A stretch of DNA of 64,000 nt, taken from sequence record ON645936.1; one strand, 5' to 3'. Position 1 is the stretch's first letter. Each line of letters starts with the position of its first letter. Below the pieces are notes generated by a model. It did no database searches, was not told the origin of the DNA, and saw only the letters and a list, made by a program, of their open reading frames with translations. Shown piece by piece: positions 2,926 through 49,456 of the stretch. The position numbers were made by a program, and so were the translations under genes. The stretch comes from Escherichia phage N2.

Positions 2926-2953
2926 TATTAAAGCATATTAAAGAGGATTAAAA

Positions 2954-4933
2954 ATGACTTTATTATCTCCGGGCATTGAGCTCAAAGAAACTACGGTTCA
3001 AAGCACTGTGGTTAATAACTCTACTGGTACAGCAGCTTTGGCCGGTAAATTCCAGTGGGGTCCTGCTTTTCAGATCAAACAGGTTACAAATGAAGTAGAT
3101 TTAGTTAATACTTTTGGTCAACCTACAGCTGAAACTGCTGATTATTTTATGTCTGCAATGAATTTCTTACAATATGGAAATGATTTGCGAGTTGTGCGTG
3201 CTGTCGATAGAGATACCGCTAAAAACTCATCTCCGATTGCTGGTAATATTGAATACACTATTTCTACCCCAGGTAGTAACTACGCGGTTGGAGATAAAAT
3301 CACAGTTAAGTATGTTTCAGAAGACATTGAAACGGAAGGTAAAATTACCGAAGTAGATGCTGATGGAAAAATTAAGAAAATTAATATTCCTACCGCAAAA
3401 ATTATCGCTAAAGCGAAAGAAGTCGGTGAATATCCAGCATTAGGTTCTAACTGGACCGCGGAAATTTCTTCGTCTTCCTCTGGTTTAGCTGCAGTAATAA
3501 CTCTTGGAAAAATTATTACTGATTCTGGTATTTTATTAGCTGAGATTGAAAATGCTGAAGCTGCTATGACAGCAGTTGAATTTCAAACAAATCTCGAAAA
3601 ATATGGAATTCCAGGAGTAGTAGCTCTTTATCCAGGCGAGTTGGGCGATAAAATCGAAATCGAAATCGTATCTAAAGCTGACTACGCAAAAGGAGCTTCT
3701 GCATTACTCCCAATTTATCCAGGTGGCGGAACACGCGCATCTACTGCTAAGGCAGTGTTTGGATATGGACCACAAACTGATTCACAATATGCTATTATAG
3801 TTCGCCGTAATGATGCTATTGTTCAAAGTATTGTTCTTTCAACAAAGCGTGGTGAAAAAGACATTTATGACAGTAACATCTATATTGATGACTTTTTCGC
3901 AAAAGGCGGTTCAGAATATATTTTCGCAACTGCACAAAACTGGCCAGAAGGCTTCTCCGGAATTTTAACTCTGTCTGGTGGATTATCATCAAATGCTGAA
4001 GTAACAGCAGGAGATTTGATGGAAGCCTGGGACTTCTTTGCTGACCGTGAATCTGTTGACGTTCAGTTGTTTATTGCGGGTTCTTGCGCCGGCGAATCTT
4101 TAGAAACAGCATCTACTGTCCAAAAACACGTCGTTTCAATTGGGGATGCTCGCCAAGATTGCTTAGTATTGTGCTCACCACCGCGTGAAACTGTAGTTGG
4201 AATTCCTGTAACTCGTGCTGTTGATAACTTAGTCAATTGGAGAACTGCAGCAGGTTCATACACCGATAATAACTTTAATATCAGTTCAACCTACGCAGCA
4301 ATTGATGGTAACTACAAGTATCAGTATGACAAATATAATGATGTGAATCGTTGGGTTCCATTAGCAGCTGATATTGCCGGTTTATGTGCAAGAACCGATA
4401 ACGTTTCTCAGACTTGGATGTCTCCAGCTGGTTATAATCGCGGCCAGATTCTTAACGTTATTAAACTTGCTATTGAAACTCGCCAGGCGCAGCGCGATCG
4501 TTTATACCAAGAAGCTATCAACCCGGTAACCGGTACAGGTGGTGATGGTTACGTATTGTATGGTGATAAAACAGCTACTTCTGTTCCTTCTCCATTTGAT
4601 CGTATTAACGTTCGTCGTCTGTTTAATATGCTGAAAACGAATATCGGACGTAGTTCAAAATATCGTTTGTTCGAATTAAACAACGCGTTTACTCGTTCAT
4701 CATTCCGCACAGAAACTGCCCAATACTTACAGGGAATTAAAGCTCTCGGTGGAATTTATGAATATCGTGTAGTTTGCGATACAACAAATAACACTCCGTC
4801 AGTAATTGATAGAAATGAGTTTGTTGCAACATTCTACATCCAACCGGCTCGTAGTATAAATTATATCCAACTTAATTTCGTCGCAACTGCTACTGGTGCA
4901 GATTTCGATGAGTTAACTGGTCTTGCAGGTTAA
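2954..4933 (+). CDS. 18: tail sheath protein gp18
   Basis: 659-aa ORF matching T4 gp18 length and N-terminus; preceded by TATAAATA late promoter. Confidence 0.95.
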   Translation: MTLLSPGIELKETTVQSTVVNNSTGTAALAGKFQWGPAFQIKQVTNEVDLVNTFGQPTAETADYFMSAMNFLQYGNDLRVVRAVDRDTAKNSSPIAGNIEYTISTPGSNYAVGDKITVKYVSEDIETEGKITEVDADGKIKKINIPTAKIIAKAKEVGEYPALGSNWTAEISSSSSGLAAVITLGKIITDSGILLAEIENAEAAMTAVEFQTNLEKYGIPGVVALYPGELGDKIEIEIVSKADYAKGASALLPIYPGGGTRASTAKAVFGYGPQTDSQYAIIVRRNDAIVQSIVLSTKRGEKDIYDSNIYIDDFFAKGGSEYIFATAQNWPEGFSGILTLSGGLSSNAEVTAGDLMEAWDFFADRESVDVQLFIAGSCAGESLETASTVQKHVVSIGDARQDCLVLCSPPRETVVGIPVTRAVDNLVNWRTAAGSYTDNNFNISSTYAAIDGNYKYQYDKYNDVNRWVPLAADIAGLCARTDNVSQTWMSPAGYNRGQILNVIKLAIETRQAQRDRLYQEAINPVTGTGGDGYVLYGDKTATSVPSPFDRINVRRLFNMLKTNIGRSSKYRLFELNNAFTRSSFRTETAQYLQGIKALGGIYEYRVVCDTTNNTPSVIDRNEFVATFYIQPARSINYIQLNFVATATGADFDELTGLAG

Positions 4934-18538: not shown

Positions 18539-18766
18539 TTACCCCATATCTCTCATATGCATATCAATGCCCATATCTTTAGAATAAAAATATTCATCAA
18601 GATATCCGGCAAATTTTCCTTTAATATAAAGGACATCTTCACCACATGGGTGGTCGGCCAGGATACGAATATCCTGACGCTTAAGATTATACTTTTTCAT
18701 TAAGAATTGAATTTCCGTTTCAAATTCTTCTTCATAATTAAAAGCATCATCAATGCTATATCTCAT
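18539..18766 (-). CDS. hypothetical protein (T4 uvsY.-1 position)
   Basis: 75-aa ORF; start overlaps uvsY stop. Confidence 0.6.
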   Translation of the reverse strand: MRYSIDDAFNYEEEFETEIQFLMKKYNLKRQDIRILADHPCGEDVLYIKGKFAGYLDEYFYSKDMGIDMHMRDMG

Positions 18767-42245: not shown

Positions 42246-43424
42246 TTAAAAATATTTTTTAAAACTCATCATAACTTTATCATCAACATCATTATCAATC
42301 TGTGCTACAAGGTAAGATGACAGTTCTACTTCTTGTGGTGCAGATTGAACATTATCAGAATTAAGGTATTCACGAATCCAAGGATATGGATGTTTAACCG
42401 GAGCATCGGTAATTGGACATGGAAGACCACACTGTTTCATACGAGATACAGTTAAGTAATCAATAAAGCTCCACATGCTATTTGTATTTAATCCAGGAAC
42501 ATCGCCATCTTTAAATAAATGAACTGCCCAATCTTTTTCTTGGCGGTTAACTTCCATGAAAATATCAACTGCTTCTTGTTCACACTCTTGAGCAATTTTA
42601 ACCCATTCATCACCATCAGTACCGGATTGAAGTTGACGAATAATATATTGAGTGCCTTTAAGGTGAAGCTGCTCATCACGTGCAATGAACTTCATAATCT
42701 TGGCATTACCTTCCATGATTTCCATGTTCTTATGGAAGTTAAAGGTACATGCAAAAGATACATAAAAACGAATAGCTTCTAAGGCATTAATAACGTGCAA
42801 ACAGAGGTAAAGAGATTTCATTAGTGCTCGTTTAGCTTCGGCTTCTTGTTTAATAGCTCGATTTAAACGAAAAACAGCATCAGGAGATTCTTTAGCTAGT
42901 TCTGTAAATTCTTTAGCATTTTCCCATTCACGGGTTTTAGTCAGAACATCATCATAATAGCGACCGATAGATTCAGCACGTTTCATAATAGCTTTATCTA
43001 GTACAATCTCATCAAATACCTTCGATGGATCAGTATAAAGATTTCGCATGATATGAGTATATGAACGACTGTGAATAGTTTCACTAAAAGTCCATGTAGC
43101 AACCCATGTATCAAGGCTTGGGTCTGAAATTAATGACATAAGTACAGCAGACGGCGCACGACCTTGAATACTATCAAGTAATGATTGATACTTCAGATTA
43201 TTAGTAAAAATATTTTGTTGATACTGAGGAAGCTTATTAAACTGTGCAGCATCCATCATCAAGTTTACTTCTTCCGGACGCCAGAAAAACGAGAGCGAAC
43301 GTTCAATAAGTTCTTCAAATACTCGATGCCGTTGAATATCATAACGCGCAATACCAAGACCTGAACCAAAAAACATAGGTTCTTTTAAAACATCGACCTG
43401 TTTAGTATTAAAAACTGTACTCAT
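42246..43424 (-). CDS. nrdB: ribonucleotide reductase small subunit, uninterrupted
   Basis: 392-aa continuous ORF with di-iron/radical subunit character. Confidence 0.93.
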   Translation of the reverse strand: MSTVFNTKQVDVLKEPMFFGSGLGIARYDIQRHRVFEELIERSLSFFWRPEEVNLMMDAAQFNKLPQYQQNIFTNNLKYQSLLDSIQGRAPSAVLMSLISDPSLDTWVATWTFSETIHSRSYTHIMRNLYTDPSKVFDEIVLDKAIMKRAESIGRYYDDVLTKTREWENAKEFTELAKESPDAVFRLNRAIKQEAEAKRALMKSLYLCLHVINALEAIRFYVSFACTFNFHKNMEIMEGNAKIMKFIARDEQLHLKGTQYIIRQLQSGTDGDEWVKIAQECEQEAVDIFMEVNRQEKDWAVHLFKDGDVPGLNTNSMWSFIDYLTVSRMKQCGLPCPITDAPVKHPYPWIREYLNSDNVQSAPQEVELSSYLVAQIDNDVDDKVMMSFKKYF

Positions 43425-45016
43425 TATTTTGTCCTGTAAACTAAATTTCCACAGTCCCAGATTCTTCTAAGACCATTTGCATAACAATTTTCTACTTCAG
43501 TTATTGTATCATCATAATTTTTAAGCTTGTTTTTAAGCTTATGTTTCATATAGCTTGAGCGGTGAAATACCTCTCCTTTATCGACGTACCAATAACATGG
43601 CTCAGAGATATGACTAAATTCCATGACAGAGTCATAAACATTTGATAATGTACTGCACCATCTTCGATTGCCATAAGATAGACAATTAATTCCTTTTAAT
43701 AATTTTGAGGCTCCTCCTACAACACAAACCCCTAATTTTGAACACATCCTTAAAAGTTCATCACCTGAGCTATATCTAGATTTACCGATAGAAATAATTT
43801 GAACTAACTCATTATTGTAATAAAGTCCTTTATACGTATGAGCTCCTGAGCAAAATCCTTGAAGATGATTCTTATTAATAAATTCTTTTGCCTCATCCTT
43901 ATTAACAAACCGTGCTTTGCATTTTCGGGCTGGTATTCTTTCTGATAATCCTAATTTATGCTTTATAATGGATTTCCAGATCTCTCTTTTTGTATCATCA
44001 ATCCATTCATTTTCGAAGATGTGAAGTAATTGAATTCCTTGTGCTTCACACATCTCTGTCTTCATCAAATGATAAGTTTCTTTAATTTTATCTGTTTCCT
44101 TTGACCCGCTAGAATGCCAATAAATTCCATCGTATTCTATAGCCAATTTTTTCTCAGGAATGTAAATATCTAATTCATACGGAGGAATAATTTTTCTAGT
44201 TTCTACGCAATCAAATCCTAGATCTAAAATGAATTGCTCTATAGAACTTTGAGTATAATGAACGTCAATTAGTCCTTTGGATGAAAGAGCTCTATAAGCC
44301 GTCATCCGAGAACAATTTGCTAATTGTTGTAGTTCTTCTATAGAAATTTTGTAATTGATTTTATCTAGTATATCATGATTAATATGACCGTTATTTTTAA
44401 TAGATTTTCCTATAGATGAATATAACGATGCCTTATATTCTTCAGTCCAATTTAATTTAGTCTTCTTAGATTTTTCGCGAGATTTTCTAGAATGCAGAAT
44501 ATCAACTGATTTACCGTTTTCTATAACTTTTCTCGCTTCTTTCACACTTTCTAATTGTGAATTATGCGTTACCCCATATCGTTCAATTAAAGTTTTTCTA
44601 TTTTTATTTCTTGAAATTTTTTGATGAGTTGTTCCATATTTTTCTAAAGAATTTTTGTGTTGAAGTTCAGACAAATATTTTTTATATTTTTCTTTTCCGC
44701 CAAAATTTGTATCACGGCTTTGAATTCTCTTATCCGCGAAAAATATCCCTGCGCAGGATTTACTACATGTTGCTGGAAATACACGTTTCTTTGCTGTTTT
44801 CAGAGAAATGAAATTTCCACAAACTGCACATTTTAGATCGTTAATGTCAATGCCTTCCATAATTTGGAACACATTGAGCTTAAAATCTATTCCATCAGTT
44901 AGAAGAGCTTTATCTTCTTCTGTTAGTCTAGATTTAAGTTTTTCTTCTCCAAATGGAAGAAACTTTCCGTTTTTGTATATATTATCAAACATAGCGTTAT
45001 TCTTAGTTAACCACAT
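43424..45016 (-). CDS. multidomain putative homing endonuclease: Cys-pair zinc ribbon, Lys-rich linker, Vsr/DUF559-like PD-(D/E)xK motif, unknown C-terminal domain
   Basis: 530-aa ORF between nrdB and nrdA; motifs CAVCGN..CSKSCAG and YELDIYIPEKKLAIEYDGIYWHS. Confidence 0.6.
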   Translation of the reverse strand: MWLTKNNAMFDNIYKNGKFLPFGEEKLKSRLTEEDKALLTDGIDFKLNVFQIMEGIDINDLKCAVCGNFISLKTAKKRVFPATCSKSCAGIFFADKRIQSRDTNFGGKEKYKKYLSELQHKNSLEKYGTTHQKISRNKNRKTLIERYGVTHNSQLESVKEARKVIENGKSVDILHSRKSREKSKKTKLNWTEEYKASLYSSIGKSIKNNGHINHDILDKINYKISIEELQQLANCSRMTAYRALSSKGLIDVHYTQSSIEQFILDLGFDCVETRKIIPPYELDIYIPEKKLAIEYDGIYWHSSGSKETDKIKETYHLMKTEMCEAQGIQLLHIFENEWIDDTKREIWKSIIKHKLGLSERIPARKCKARFVNKDEAKEFINKNHLQGFCSGAHTYKGLYYNNELVQIISIGKSRYSSGDELLRMCSKLGVCVVGGASKLLKGINCLSYGNRRWCSTLSNVYDSVMEFSHISEPCYWYVDKGEVFHRSSYMKHKLKNKLKNYDDTITEVENCYANGLRRIWDCGNLVYRTK

Positions 45017-45032
45017 CCTTGTGGTAATTATA

Positions 45033-47297
45033 TCATAATTTACAGGATGAACAATCTTCAGCTTTTGGAGTTTCTATTTCGTAATCATCAGTACCGGAAC
45101 CGTCGCGGGTATTATGATAATAGAAATTTTTTCCGCCAAAATACCAAAAATACAAAAGGTCATCAATCATTATTGACATTGGAACCTTTCCTTTTGGAAA
45201 AATCTGCGGGTCATAATATGTATTCGCTGAAGCTGATTGACATACCCATTTCAACATAATAGCTACTTGCGTAAGATAAGGTTTATTACCTTTCTTAGCT
45301 AATTTCCACGTATAATCATAGAGGTCTATGTTATGCTCAATATTGGGCACGACTTGATTAAAGGAACCCTCTTTTGATTCTTTAACAGAGACTGGTCCAC
45401 GTGGAGGCTCGATACCGTTTGTACTGTTAGAAACTTGGGAAGATGACTCACATGGCATAAGTGCTGATAATGTGCTATTACGGATGCCAAAGAGCTTAAG
45501 GTCTTCCCGCAGCGACGACCAGTCACAAACGTATTTTGGAGCTGCGATTTGGTCAATCTTTTTATTGTACCAGTCGATAGGTAATTCGCCTCGAGACCAA
45601 CGAGTGTCTGAATAATATTCGCAAGGTCCTTTTTCTTTGGCGAGCTTAATGGATGCTTTAATGAGTCCATACTGTAATCTCTCAAATAGTTCATGTGTTA
45701 AATCGTTAGCATCTTCATAAGAAGCAAAGTTACTTGCCAGCCAAGCTGCATAGTTAGTAACACCTACACCGAGGTTACGACGCTTTTTAGCTTTTTCTGC
45801 TTCAGGAACTGGATATCCTTGGTAATCCAAAAGATTATCAAGAGCACGAACTTGAACTTCTGCCAATTCATTAATTTTATCTTGGTCTTGCCAATCGAAG
45901 TTATCTAATACAAATGCGCTAAGGGTACACAATCCAATTTCAGCATCAGGACTATTCACATCATTTGTTGGAATAGCAATTTCACAGCACAAGTTACTCT
46001 GACGAATAGGTGCCTTTTCACGAATAAACGGAGTATAGTTATTCGTATTATCAATGAACTGCACATAAATCCTTGCTGTTCCTGAACGTTCAGTCATGAG
46101 CAATTCAAATAGTTCACGGGCTTTAATACGCTTTTTGCGAATATTAGGGTCTTTTTCTGCGGCTTCATACAATTCACGGAAACGGTCTTGGTCTTTAAAA
46201 TAAGAATAATAAAGCTCGCCACCCATTTCGTGTGGACTGAACAAAGTAATGTAGTCGTTCTTTCCAAAACGTTCCATCATCAAATCATTCAGTTGAACGC
46301 CATAATCCATATGACGGATACGGTTTTCTTCTACGCCTTTGTTATTTTTCAAAACGAGAAGATTTTCAACTTCCAAATGCCAAATAGGATAATAAGCAGT
46401 AGCAGCGCCGCCACGAATTCCGCCTTGTGAACATGATTTAACAGCAGTCTGAAAATGTTTCCAAAAAGGAATAACGCCAGTATGACGCACTTCACCTGTG
46501 CCAATCTTAGAACCTTCGGCACGAATCATACCAACGTTAATACCAATTCCAGCGCGTTTGGAGATATATTCAACAATTGAAGCAGAAGCCTTATTGATAG
46601 ACTTCAGCGAATCACCTGCTTCAATAACAACGCATGAACTAAACTGTCGAGTTGGAGTACGACAACCAGCCATAATAGGAGTTGGCAATGAAATCTGTCG
46701 AGTAGATACTGCTTCATAAAAACGGATAACGTGTTTTAATCTATCAACAGGTTCATCTTGATGCAATGCCATTCCAATAGTCATAAATGCAAACTGTGGA
46801 GTTTCATAAATTTGACCAGTGGTTTTATCTTTAACGAGATATTTTTCTTTTAATTGCATCGCCCCGGAATAAGTAAATTCCATATCCCGCTCGTGCTTAA
46901 TTTTTGATTCTAAAAATGTAATTTCTTCTGCTGAATATTTTGACAATAATTCAGGGTCATATTTACCTTCATTTACACAGTAAGAAATATGGTCAATAAA
47001 TGAACGGGGCTCATACTGTCCGTACACGTGTTTACGAAGAGCAAACATTAAACAGCGTGCAGCTACGTATTGATAATCAGGCTCTTCAACTGAAATAGAA
47101 TTCGCAGCAGCCTTAATTACAATGGTTTGAATGTCATCAGTGGTCATTCCATCACGGAGATATGATTTAATATTTTCATATAATTCATAAGGATCTACTG
47201 ATGTTCCTTCAGCTGCCCAAGATAAAACTTTAATAATTTTTTGTGGGTCAAAGCTCTGAGAAACACCACTACTTTTGATAACATTAATTAATTGCAT
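45033..47297 (-). CDS. nrdA: ribonucleotide reductase large subunit
   Basis: 754-aa ORF from MQLINVIKSSG with GAGGA SD; the 29-codon upstream extension in the track is rejected. Confidence 0.95.
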   Translation of the reverse strand: MQLINVIKSSGVSQSFDPQKIIKVLSWAAEGTSVDPYELYENIKSYLRDGMTTDDIQTIVIKAAANSISVEEPDYQYVAARCLMFALRKHVYGQYEPRSFIDHISYCVNEGKYDPELLSKYSAEEITFLESKIKHERDMEFTYSGAMQLKEKYLVKDKTTGQIYETPQFAFMTIGMALHQDEPVDRLKHVIRFYEAVSTRQISLPTPIMAGCRTPTRQFSSCVVIEAGDSLKSINKASASIVEYISKRAGIGINVGMIRAEGSKIGTGEVRHTGVIPFWKHFQTAVKSCSQGGIRGGAATAYYPIWHLEVENLLVLKNNKGVEENRIRHMDYGVQLNDLMMERFGKNDYITLFSPHEMGGELYYSYFKDQDRFRELYEAAEKDPNIRKKRIKARELFELLMTERSGTARIYVQFIDNTNNYTPFIREKAPIRQSNLCCEIAIPTNDVNSPDAEIGLCTLSAFVLDNFDWQDQDKINELAEVQVRALDNLLDYQGYPVPEAEKAKKRRNLGVGVTNYAAWLASNFASYEDANDLTHELFERLQYGLIKASIKLAKEKGPCEYYSDTRWSRGELPIDWYNKKIDQIAAPKYVCDWSSLREDLKLFGIRNSTLSALMPCESSSQVSNSTNGIEPPRGPVSVKESKEGSFNQVVPNIEHNIDLYDYTWKLAKKGNKPYLTQVAIMLKWVCQSASANTYYDPQIFPKGKVPMSIMIDDLLYFWYFGGKNFYYHNTRDGSGTDDYEIETPKAEDCSSCKL

Positions 47298-47322
47298 AAG
47301 TCCTCTGTAGTAAGTTACCCCA

Positions 47323-47330
47323 TATAAATA
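47323..47330 (+). promoter_or_regulatory. late promoter TATAAATA driving the free-standing GIY-YIG endonuclease gene
   Basis: Exact octamer 23 nt upstream of ATG, followed by AGGAG SD. Confidence 0.7.
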
Positions 47331-47352
47331 TAATTTTATATAGGAGAATATA

Positions 47353-48084
47353 ATGAAATCTGGAATATATGCTATTATAAACACTAAAACTAATAAGCAC
47401 TATATAGGAAGTGCAATTAATTTTGAAGAACGATGGAAACGACACTTTAAAGATTTAGATAATGGAAATCATCATTCAATAAAGCTGCAGCGTTCTTATA
47501 ATAAGCATGGTAAAGATGCTTTCGTATGTAAAATCATAGAAGAACTTCCATACGAAAAATCTATCATTATTGAACGTGAAAATTATTGGATGCATGAATA
47601 TGACTCAAAGGAAAATGGGTATAATATAGCAGACGCATCGTTTGGGGATACCTTATCTCATCACCCAAGAAAGCAAGAAATCCTTAATAAAATTTCAAAT
47701 GCAATTAAAAATAATAATTCAAAATTATCACCAGAAGAACTTAAGCAAAAACATGGTAGACCTAGAGACATCAAAGGTAAAACTATAGAAGAACACTATG
47801 GGTTAGATCGTGCTATAGAAATAAGCAAAAAGTTCCAAGAAAGAAACGCTGCACTTAATATGAAAGGCATCAATAATCCATATTACGGACAGACGCATAC
47901 CAATGAAGTTAGAAAACGAATTTCTGACTCACAGAGAGGTAAAAAGAAACCCCATCTAAGAGTAAGTATAGATGGGGTAGAATATCCAACAATAGCAGAA
48001 GCTGTGCGTCAAACCGGAATAAGCAGAAAACTTATATCTAAAAGATGCGCTCTAGATTGCTGGGAATCATATTTATACTGCTAA
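47353..48084 (+). CDS. free-standing GIY-YIG homing endonuclease of the I-TevI family
   Basis: 243-aa ORF; N-terminal [46 protein letters not shown] closely parallels I-TevI catalytic domain; TATAAATA late promoter and AGGAG SD upstream. Confidence 0.85.
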
Positions 48085-48330
48085 AGTTCTACATTCGTCA
48101 TATTGTTTTTCCGTTAAAACAGTAATATCATAATAGCAATCAGAAGAAGTTTTAACTGTGGAAATTTTATTATCAAAATACTCACGAGTCATTTTATGAG
48201 TATAATATTTTTTGCCATAAATGATAATAGGCTGTTCTGGTCCTGGAACTTCTAACTCGCTTGGATTAGGAAGTGTAAAAAGAACGATACCAGAAGTATC
48301 TTTAAATCGTAAAATCATATATCCTCGCAA
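48073..48330 (-). CDS. hypothetical small protein downstream of td
   Basis: 85-aa ORF with GAGGA SD; 3' end overlaps the endonuclease ORF on opposite strand. Confidence 0.5.
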
Positions 48331-48341
48331 TTAAATTAAAA

Positions 48342-48653
48342 TTATACCGCCATTTTTCCTTTCAAGACACCGTGGGACTGATAATCTTTGAGAACGAAAT
48401 CTTTAGGCCTGAGTTTAAGAATGTATTCCAATTGTTCTTTAGTAGAAAGATAACGGAATTTATAAGGTAATCCGCCTATTACCAGTTCACAAAGCTCTTT
48501 AGATTCACGACGCAAAATTTCTTTACATTGTTCTACGTGATTCATATAGATATGAGTATTACCACCAGAAAATATCAAATCTCCTGGAATAAGATTACAC
48601 ATCTTAGCTACAATATGAACTAACGCAGCATATGATGCAATATTAAATGGAAG
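48342..48653 (-). CDS. td: thymidylate synthase, exon 2
   Basis: Encodes LPFNIASYA... ThyA C-terminal region; joins in frame to exon 1 after intron removal. Confidence 0.9.
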   Translation of the reverse strand, partial: LPFNIASYAALVHIVAKMCNLIPGDLIFSGGNTHIYMNHVEQCKEILRRESKELCELVIGGLPYKFRYLSTKEQLEYILKLRPKDFVLKDYQSHGVLKGKMAV

Positions 48654-48907
48654 CATTATGTTCAGATAAGGTCGTTAATCTTATCCCGGAATTATATCCA
48701 GCTGCATGTCACCATACAGATCAGACTATATCTCCATCTTGATGAAGCAAGATGTCTATCGTTTCGAGTCACTTGACCCTACTCCCCAAAGGGATAGTCG
48801 TTAGGCATTTAGTTCAAAAGAACATTTAGCACGGGATTGTCTACTAGAGAGGTTCCCCGTTTAGATAGATTACAAGTATAAGTCACCTTATACTCAGGCC
48901 TCAATTA
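48654..48907 (-). ncRNA. group I self-splicing intron in td, ORF-less (about 254 nt)
   Basis: Starts UAAUUGAGGCCUGAGUAUAAGGUGACUUAUACUUGUAAUCUAUCUAAACGGGGAACC after exon-1 ...CUUGGGU, ends ...CUGAACAUAAUG before exon 2, matching remembered T4 td intron ends. Confidence 0.85.
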
Positions 48908-49456
48908 ACCCAAGAACACGTCAACACTTCTTTGATACCACTGCAAATCCAAATAGCCATTACGCACATTAAACTGATAGAACATATGACAAGGCGGTAA
49001 TGCCATTTGCTTGAGTTCAGCTGGATTCCATGCAGAAACAACTTGACGTCTATCATTTGGCAGTTTTTTAATACGATCAATAACTTCTACAATTTGGTCT
49101 ACACCACCAAAATCACGCCACTGTTTTCCATAAATTGGACCAAGTTCACCACTATGATATCCTAAATCTTTTGCTTGATTTTCGTAATTTTCATCCCAGA
49201 CTGTTTTGCCTTGAATTAATGAATCGTGTTGAATTAATCGTAAATCATTGACATTTGTGCTTCCTGATAAAAACCAAAGTAGCTCAGCAATGCAAGCTTT
49301 CCAGGCGAGCTTCTTAGTTGTTACTGCAGGAAAACCTTTAGTTAAATCCCAGCGTAATTTAGTACCGAACAAAGCAATTGTTCCTGTGCCTGTTCGGTCA
49401 TCAGTTTCATAGCCATTTTCAAAAATGTCTTTAATTAAATCTTGGTATTGTTTCAT
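48908..49456 (-). CDS. td: thymidylate synthase, exon 1
   Basis: 183 codons ending ...QRSVDVFLG, followed by in-frame UAA at intron start. Confidence 0.9.

Follow-up and report, generated by a model that had tools for sequence, protein, structure and literature searches.

A predicted free-standing homing endonuclease gene of the I-TevI lineage that alternates with nrdA.1 in T4-like phages

I-TevI, whose open reading frame (ORF) lies within the td intron of phage T4, serves as the reference among GIY-YIG homing endonucleases and as a scaffold for nucleases used in genome editing. Its operator overlaps a late promoter, resembles the td homing site and is bound by the enzyme but cut about 100-fold less efficiently, and this poor cleavage has been attributed to the absence of a properly placed CXXXG (PMC2988022). 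Another GIY-YIG enzyme of the I-TevI type, I-BmoI, is known from the thyA intron of Bacillus mojavensis (PMC12774661). T4 further carries free-standing seg genes, and Table 1 of PMC2988022 maps none of them to the td-nrdA interval. Here we describe the free-standing gene closest to I-TevI, which lies in that interval of Escherichia phage N2 and was found in a stretch of 64,000 nucleotides of record ON645936.1 (the window). The ORF (47353..48084, plus strand) encodes 243 aa plus stop; since position 47298 is the first base past the nrdA start codon (ATG at 47297-47295, minus strand), the interval 47298-48084 consists of leader and ORF. The reading that we favour, and hold to be probable while leaving considerable room for doubt, is that the gene is intact and mobile, a free-standing member of the I-TevI lineage of homing endonucleases that sits in the nrdA.1 slot and has its predicted target in nrdA.1.

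A zinc-finger-less I-TevI relative in an alternating cassette

The 243-aa protein matches the Pfam families GIY-YIG (PF01541, 7e-15) and NUMOD3 (2e-6), and exceeds the cut-off of the NCBIfam model TIGR01453 'group I intron endonuclease' (128.5 bits vs 56.05), while the match to I-TevI_DNA-bd (PF20987; 2e-4, 21.4 bits) stays below the cut-off of 27. Its best PHROG is phrog_314 (3.6e-42), the family of T4 I-TevI, and BLASTP against I-TevI gives 46% identity, collinear along the full length. Among solved structures, the catalytic domain of I-TevI (1MK0/1LN0) is matched at E = 1e-39 with 68% identity and the DNA-binding domain (1I3J) at E = 3e-7 by sequence and 1.7e-4 by Foldseek. The catalytic set Y6, Y17, R27, H31, H40, E76 and N91 is kept in full, and Y17, G19, R27, H31, H40, E76 and N91 show no variation across 45 aligned homologues. 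An AlphaFold2 (AF2) model, with a mean predicted local distance difference test (pLDDT) score of 87 and values of 91-97 across residues 1-90, superimposes on 1MK0 with a template modelling (TM) score of 0.98 and a root-mean-square deviation of 0.6 Å in Foldseek, which identifies the GIY-YIG fold. The sequence-only reading, made from the letters and the ORF translations, had already taken the ORF for a free-standing member of the I-TevI family on the plus strand, and the family assignment is borne out by the profile matches and the fold.

The catalytic domain (aa 1-98; 47353..47646, plus strand) is delimited by the 1MK0/1LN0 match and the AF2 model. It is followed by a helical linker (aa 99-170; 47647..47862, plus strand) and by a DNA-binding region (47863..48081, plus strand) composed of a NUMOD3 minor-groove helix (aa 171-194) and a helix-turn-helix (aa 201-243). 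At the place of the I-TevI zinc finger the model has helices at residues 107-123, 127-134 and 145-168. No CxC...CxxC motif of a Cys4 zinc finger was found in the protein, and the four Cys positions of I-TevI pair with non-Cys residues in the alignments to I-TevI and 1I3J, as expected from the earlier suggestion that the finger is lacking; the zinc finger family PF22635 is found in the intronic clade, but neither in this protein nor in the clade to which it belongs. The protein is thus shown, at the level of sequence comparison and model, to have the I-TevI architecture (GIY-YIG nuclease, long linker, NUMOD3 helix, helix-turn-helix) minus the zinc finger. The C-terminal half has indeed diverged, as first proposed, but it is still homologous to the NUMOD3 helix and helix-turn-helix of I-TevI and not an unrelated domain. 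This divergence would predict a target different from that of I-TevI, a point on which we follow the sequence-only reading.

A tblastn search (E <= 1e-5) gave one matching place in each of the T4 records listed, which in the complete T4 genomes is I-TevI. Since these records have no other matching place, the 243-aa gene is no orthologue of any T4 seg gene, and a known seg gene at the same position can be set aside. The gene is an uncharacterised addition to a known kind, namely a predicted GIY-YIG homing endonuclease of the I-TevI subfamily. GenBank labels for it vary between 'homing endonuclease', 'GIY-YIG nuclease family protein' and, wrongly, 'intron-associated endonuclease 1', a label that our assignment corrects for a gene outside any intron. 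It is a close paralogue of I-TevI: the nuclease domains are 68% identical and the linkers equally long, but it has no zinc finger and is predicted to differ in DNA-binding specificity. Such a paralogue offers a natural experiment on what determines target specificity and cleavage distance, and on the relation of an intron endonuclease to free-standing relatives.

Searching the database with this protein returned 68 homologues at E <= 1e-20, and the genomic contexts of 20 loci were read. All 20 are linked to td, lying either within it or just 3' of it. In the window, KpV477 and the loci L020-L023, L025 and L028-L030 the gene occupies the nrdA-td interval on the opposite strand, 3' of td and mostly abutting it, and the same placement is found in the Acinetobacter phages AbTZA1, Meroveus and AB1I1M-1. 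It follows td directly on the same strand in L024 and L027, and lies within a split td in T4/RB3, Aes508, L026 and, as a second copy, L020. A neighbour-joining tree gathers the intronic proteins with a zinc finger in one clade and places the free-standing proteins without it in others; in this tree the free-standing lineage and the intron-borne I-TevI clade are sisters, and the former resides within a few hundred bp of td. As nrdA.1 normally adjoins td, and lies directly 3' of it in Aes508, residence beside td and residence in the nrdA.1 slot are inseparable by position alone.

The borders of the element were read from alignments of eight carriers (the window, ECO07P5, CJY920, TB004, sutha, RPN226, LH2 and Ozark) with seven non-carriers (RB27, RB3, T4, KIT06, ESh25, 236Ecol005PP and HMD-9). 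Homology between the two sets stops after ...GCATAAGTCCTC (47305), directly past the nrdA ribosome-binding site, and restarts at ATTCGTCATATTG (48093), close to the 3' end of nrdA.2. Between these points the carriers have a heterologous segment of 787 bp (47306..48092, plus strand), the mobile cassette, where non-carriers have about 300 bp with nrdA.1, the gene of a DUF4326 protein. The gene therefore lies outside td and in the interval to which the earlier reading assigned it, but it replaces nrdA.1 and is not a plain insertion. In Jiaodavirus, where the filled KpV477 and the empty KP185 are 98.4% identical in nrdA and 96.4% in td, the cassette stands for nrdA.1 and a 68-aa ORF. In Roskildevirus, where the metagenomic contig L022 (filled) can be set against Erwinia phage Cronus (empty), it stands for an nrdA.1 homologue and a further small gene, and extends from the start of nrdA to the stop codon of td. 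Alternation of the cassette with nrdA.1 between near-identical flanks is thereby shown, on aligned genomes, for Tequatrovirus, Jiaodavirus and Roskildevirus, and it explains the absence of nrdA.1 (DUF4326) from some T4-like genomes. No nrdA.1 was found in the whole 64-kb window, and the endonuclease lineage was found at 0 of 53 nrdA.1 loci of the IMG/VR database. Single-nucleotide differences linked to carriage, taken as a sign of target immunity, were not seen outside the cassette in nrdA, nrdA.2 or td (8 carriers vs 7 non-carriers).

The ratio of non-synonymous to synonymous divergence (dN/dS) of the endonuclease gene is 0.04-0.09, and the gene is, by this measure, under strong purifying selection. 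Between the window and KpV477, dS amounts to 0.47 in the endonuclease gene and to 2.4 in nrdA, and is saturated in td (not computable). The megablast match of the region to 18 Klebsiella phage records is limited to the cassette, and the Tequatrovirus copies are 97-99% identical though the td of their backgrounds falls to 50-90%; the Ozark copy, for example, is 99% identical while the Ozark td drops to 50-90% identity. These comparisons show that the cassette crossed genera much more recently than its flanks diverged, and the presence/absence polymorphism in three genera, together with an endonuclease dS far below that of the flanks, argues for recent horizontal spread.

The leader motif and a predicted target in nrdA.1

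The gene has upstream signals of its own, as had been noted from the sequence: a T4-type late promoter box, TATAAATA, matches at 47323..47330 (plus strand), and an AGGAG Shine-Dalgarno sequence at 47342..47346 (plus strand) lies 6 nt 5' of the ATG and is kept in KpV477. The box occurs 19 times in the whole window against 8.9 expected, its plus-strand copies being concentrated in the first 17 kb, and it lies 28-40 nt 5' of the ATG in 9 of 10 convergent homologues, those of Acinetobacter phages included. Sigma-70 promoters and terminators near the endonuclease gene were found in counts no better than chance. A second TATAAATA (48070-48077, minus strand), within the last codons of the endonuclease ORF and at the nrdA.2 stop, is likewise kept in KpV477; if active, it would give late antisense transcription across the endonuclease gene towards nrdA.

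Within the leader lies an 11-mer, TTACCCCATAT (47315..47325, plus strand), a predicted operator or target mimic that is antisense to the NrdA.1 codons I-W-G-N. In the form TTA(C/T)CCCA(T/C)AT it is present in 9/9 leaders of the enterobacterial lineage, which otherwise do not align and belong to groups whose proteins are just 54-57% identical between groups. It overlaps TATAAATA in 4/9, lies 5 nt upstream of it in 3/9 and falls into the interval between Shine-Dalgarno sequence and ATG in 2/9; it was not found within 200 nt in the leaders of 9 relatives outside the lineage, at up to two mismatches. The reverse complement ATATGGGGTAA gives exactly the codons of the conserved NrdA.1 I-W-G-N in Aes508-type nrdA.1 (11/11). 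The leader variant TTACCCCACAT is antisense to the codons ATGTGGGGTAA of the M-W-G-N allele found in many enterobacterial phages, and in L020, L022 and L028 the match stretches to T-I-W-G-N. The leader element is moreover oriented as nrdA.1 is in non-carriers. Across 276 kb of nrdA.1 loci, 4/4 exact and 14/17 one-mismatch matches of the 11-mer fall on those codons (18/21), and in 18 IMG/VR nrdA.1 loci it matches at >=10/11, always at the same codons. Two more perfect matches to TTACCCCATAT (18539-18549 and 44569-44579, plus strand) fall within ORFs of the minus strand; although 64 kb would be expected to hold fewer than three, we have taken the matches at 18539 and 44569 as chance.

The intronic leaders of T4 (L013, ~3460-3500) and Aes508 (L019, ~2930-3000) have in common CTGCC(C/T)TTTAATA, motif CTGCCYTTTAATA, beside the late promoter, so that the known type of I-TevI operator is conserved across genera. 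Because the leader of the free-standing gene mimics nrdA.1 in the way the I-TevI operator mimics the homing site, we predict that the enzyme targets the nrdA.1 T-(I/M/F)-W-G-N site and that the leader copy is an operator bound by the enzyme. The motif thus offers a concrete and inexpensive prediction of where the enzyme would home, at the nrdA.1 T-I/M-W-G-N codons, and of where it would regulate its own gene. In the nrdA.1 sense strand of most enterobacterial alleles, the G of a CNNNG lies 24 nt 5' of the site, within the 23-25 nt spacing of I-TevI, and the leaders have no CNNNG on that side of the 11-mer. On the RB27 plus strand, inspection by eye showed no CNNNG oriented as for I-TevI at -23..-27 upstream of TTTCCCCAAAA; the one with its G at -24 is on the nrdA.1 sense strand.

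The enzyme probably cuts nrdA.1, and homing might proceed as follows. In a mixed infection it would be made late from the TATAAATA promoter, and its C-terminal domain would bind the nrdA.1 T-(I/M/F)-W-G-N sequence of a co-infecting genome free of the cassette, so that the tethered nuclease domain could cut a nearby CNNNG. Resection would then remove nrdA.1, and repair on the carrier template, with nrdA and nrdA.2/td as homology arms, would copy the cassette in. The carrier itself would be immune because it has no nrdA.1, and the leader site, having no CNNNG on the relevant side, is predicted to be bound and left uncut, resulting in autorepression as shown for I-TevI.

Several observations weigh against a mobile gene with its target in nrdA.1. 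The nrdA.1 site of Tequatrovirus, TTTTGGGGAAA, matches the 11-mer at 8/11 and those of Jiaodavirus and Roskildevirus at 9/11; the poor match in Tequatrovirus could go together with the rarity of the gene there, or the prediction could be wrong. The phage collection has about 520 records of Tequatrovirus type, and 8 of these, from 7 phages, carry the gene, a scarcity that suggests weak drive in this genus. The 11-mer could also be an inert remnant of nrdA.1 or have another role in the leader, and the CNNNG spacing is weak support because CNNNG is frequent in the GC-richer nrdA.1 and rare in the AT-rich leaders. The cassette edges mark where homology begins and not the position of a cut, and in Acinetobacter phages more distant free-standing relatives occur together with nrdA.1. 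Finally, a literature search on free-standing endonucleases at td and nrdA returned no paper describing the gene; one genome paper mentions in passing an 'I-TevI-like' gene in the Acinetobacter phages 133 and Ac42.

The td intron and competing explanations

The td exons (48342-48653 and 48908-49456, minus strand) are separated by a 254-nt group I intron without an ORF (48654..48907, minus strand), a neighbour outside the element. The match to Rfam RF00028 (Intron_gpI) covers the full intron length with 72.6 bits against a gathering score of 50 and is the only intron match reported. The sequence-only reading had recognised this reduced intron correctly but had set it 400 bp from the endonuclease gene; it lies 570 bp from the end of the ORF, with nrdA.2 between. 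Where the T4 intron has 774 nt, the window intron has a 12-nt hairpin loop whose GTTCT equals the end of the I-TevI ORF, and it may have arisen from the I-TevI intron by deletion, although this resemblance is weak. ORF-less or degenerate td introns of several sizes are present in 36 phage records, and these several size classes point to repeated independent decay of I-TevI. Intron classes without an intact ORF number at least four (254 nt, ~250-265 nt, ~320 nt and ~445 nt), and phages with ORF-less or degenerate td introns include MLP2, Shinka and HP3; FL18, vB_EcoM_112, G28 and F1; and BYEP01, CE1 and PD112.

The eight Tequatrovirus carriers comprise all three states of td: two are intronless (ECO07P5, Ozark), four have the full 1016-nt I-TevI intron (sutha, RPN226, LH2, TB004) and two the 254-nt ORF-less intron (window, CJY920). 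The 254-nt intron is also present in 236Ecol005PP (100%) and HMD-9 (99.3%), which have no cassette and keep nrdA.1, and among the contexts read td is intronless in the Jiaodavirus KpV477, the Acinetobacter carriers and most metagenomic carriers. These genomes do not support a specific tie of the endonuclease gene to the ORF-less td intron; though it could be co-converted as a passenger, the intron is in our reading no partner of the element.

Within td, synonymous differences track the intron, with TTCTTGGGT in intron-bearing alleles and TTTCTTGGT or TTTCTCGGC in most intronless ones, which is consistent with the requirement for P1 pairing. At the exon junction (48908-48920 / 48641-48653; L001-L015), GTTTTTCTTGGT or CTCGGC is found in most intronless alleles, Ozark excepted, and GTTTTCTTGGGT in intron-bearing ones. 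Identity of td (48342-49456 vs L001-L015) is patchy, at 50-100% per 60-bp window, with nrdA at 85-100%; the variability of td among Tequatroviruses suggests repeated allele exchange near the homing site. Co-conversion tracts were sought in pairwise identity profiles, for which the region, and td above all, proved too mosaic.

According to one alternative, which we consider rather unlikely, the enzyme is a free-standing isoschizomer of I-TevI that cuts intronless td at or near the I-TevI site and mobilises the ORF-less td intron in trans. Residence within or immediately 3' of td in all 20 subfamily contexts, an intron insertion site merely 570 bp from the ORF end and a td intron in 6/8 Tequatrovirus carriers would all fit, and mobE with the nrdB intron is a documented case of trans homing by a free-standing endonuclease nearby (PMC2790892). 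Linkage to td is, however, equally explained by an nrdA.1 slot that adjoins td, as in Aes508, and both the three td states of carriers and the presence of the same ORF-less intron without the gene speak against this alternative. Further, the intronless td of carriers and non-carriers cannot be told apart at the homing site: within 60 bp on each side of the insertion site ECO07P5 and KIT06 differ by one synonymous base, and of five scattered sites that distinguish intronless carriers from intronless non-carriers none is at the I-TevI site. Carriers would therefore cut their own td. The recognition residues of the helix-turn-helix are also unlike those of I-TevI, and the leader motif resembles nrdA.1 and not the td site; within td the 11-mer has no match better than chance, the best being 8/11 at +13..+23 and +30..+40 relative to the point of intron insertion.

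A related proposal, to which we give a similarly low probability, is that the nrdA.1-slot lineage represents the ancestral home of I-TevI, from which specificity moved from nrdA.1 to the td active-site codons, a zinc finger was gained and the gene entered the td intron, and/or that the present enzyme still cuts td and mobilises ORF-less td introns in trans. If this were true, two extant genes would represent the states before and after the best-studied mobile intron arose.

It is improbable, in our estimation, that the gene is no longer mobile and encodes a domesticated DNA-binding protein or nuclease, active for example in late repression around nrdA/td or in the exclusion of competitors. Strong purifying selection, the conservation of slot, late promoter and leader motif, and the rarity of the gene in Tequatrovirus would all suit such a role, but the full catalytic set has been kept, and the polymorphism in three genera with the low endonuclease dS indicates recent horizontal spread.

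We give equally little credence to a mobile endonuclease with another target nearby, such as the 5' end of nrdA with its ribosome-binding site or the small ORF beside nrdA.1. In T4, the usual target of a free-standing endonuclease is a conserved gene at its flank (PMC2988022, Table 1), and the left edge of the cassette always adjoins the nrdA ribosome-binding site, where GAGGACTTATGCAA is common to Tequatrovirus and Jiaodavirus. The 5' sequence of nrdA is nevertheless the same in carriers and non-carriers, and no leader motif points to it.

That the gene was caught in the act, about to invade the td intron or just out of it, is very improbable: although the free-standing clade without and the intronic clade with the zinc finger are sister groups, and both types of gene lie a few hundred bp apart in one genome (sutha, LH2, RPN226, TB004, L020), the DNA of the endonuclease and I-TevI genes is ~70% identical in the catalytic half only, with no upstream homology and no long identical tract, which argues against recent exchange, the lineage has kept one slot across proteins diverged to 45-55% identity, and the ORF-less intron is shared by non-carriers and may derive from the I-TevI intron by deletion. 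The sequence-only reading had offered either such an intermediate or collaborative homing with the ORF-less intron, and neither finds support in the three td states of carriers and the occurrence of the intron in non-carriers.

Neighbouring genes and comparison with known systems

The endonuclease gene stands on the plus strand among the minus-strand genes nrdA, nrdA.2, td, frd and gene 32. The left homology arm, nrdA (45033..47297, minus strand), is divergent from it, and Met30 of the long ORF is its true start, giving a protein of 754 aa. The right arm begins with nrdA.2 (48073..48318, minus strand; Pfam DUF5496, 1e-52), whose last 6 codons are antisense to the 3' end of the endonuclease gene and whose C-terminus is unlike that of RB27 NrdA.2. 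Between nrdA and its downstream gene lies a 530-aa ORF (43424-45016, minus strand) that belongs to phrog_3339 'homing endonuclease' (3e-151), has weak Pfam matches to the MTES_1575/DUF559 nucleases and is 96-100% identical in CJY920. The downstream neighbour of this slot is nrdB in related phages, and T4 has mobE there; the ORF is probably the Hef-type endonuclease that is reported to replace mobE (Sandegren 2005, cited in PMC2790892). An ORF of ~236 aa interrupts nrdA, leaving it as two ORFs, in RPN226 (L008 1-3098), where its annotation is HNH endonuclease, in 236Ecol005PP (L011 1-2645), where it is putative mobile endonuclease, and in L020 (765-3919). This arrangement recalls the split nrdA of Aeromonas phage Aeh1.

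What is new and testable here is the allelism of the nrdA.1 slot in three genera, the family-wide residence beside td and a leader motif that names a candidate target. The layout of the locus is similar to that of known free-standing endonucleases within recombination distance of an intron without a working endonuclease (PMC2790892, PMC2988022), but differs in that the gene has no cross-genome association with the ORF-less td intron. With SegA-G of T4 it has in common that it is a free-standing GIY-YIG gene in an intergenic T-even slot, patchily distributed in closely related phages and expected to spread through double-strand-break repair during mixed infection, the route of intronless homing (PMC2988022); it differs in replacing nrdA.1 rather than lying between intact genes, and in having no seg orthologue. 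I-TevI is the nearest characterised relative and has the same order of modules, nearly the same length (245 vs 243 aa), a late-promoter box just upstream and a conserved GC-containing motif beside the promoter. The gene described here nevertheless lies outside an intron, on the strand opposite to td, encodes no zinc finger and has a recognition helix unlike SSGLVTYRVKS of I-TevI, and its leader motif mimics nrdA.1 and not the td homing site. I-BmoI likewise has no zinc finger and carries NUMOD3-type repeats, but its gene lies in an intron, its target is thymidylate synthase and its sequence is far more distant; it was absent from the homologues at E <= 1e-20. The arrangement of a free-standing homologue of an intron endonuclease beside the host gene of the intron is reportedly also that of T3 gene 5.3 and I-TslI of phage PhiI, which are said to cut the same position of the DNA polymerase gene (Bonocora and Shub in 2009). 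In the present case, by contrast, the evidence points to a target, nrdA.1, other than the td site of the intronic relative.

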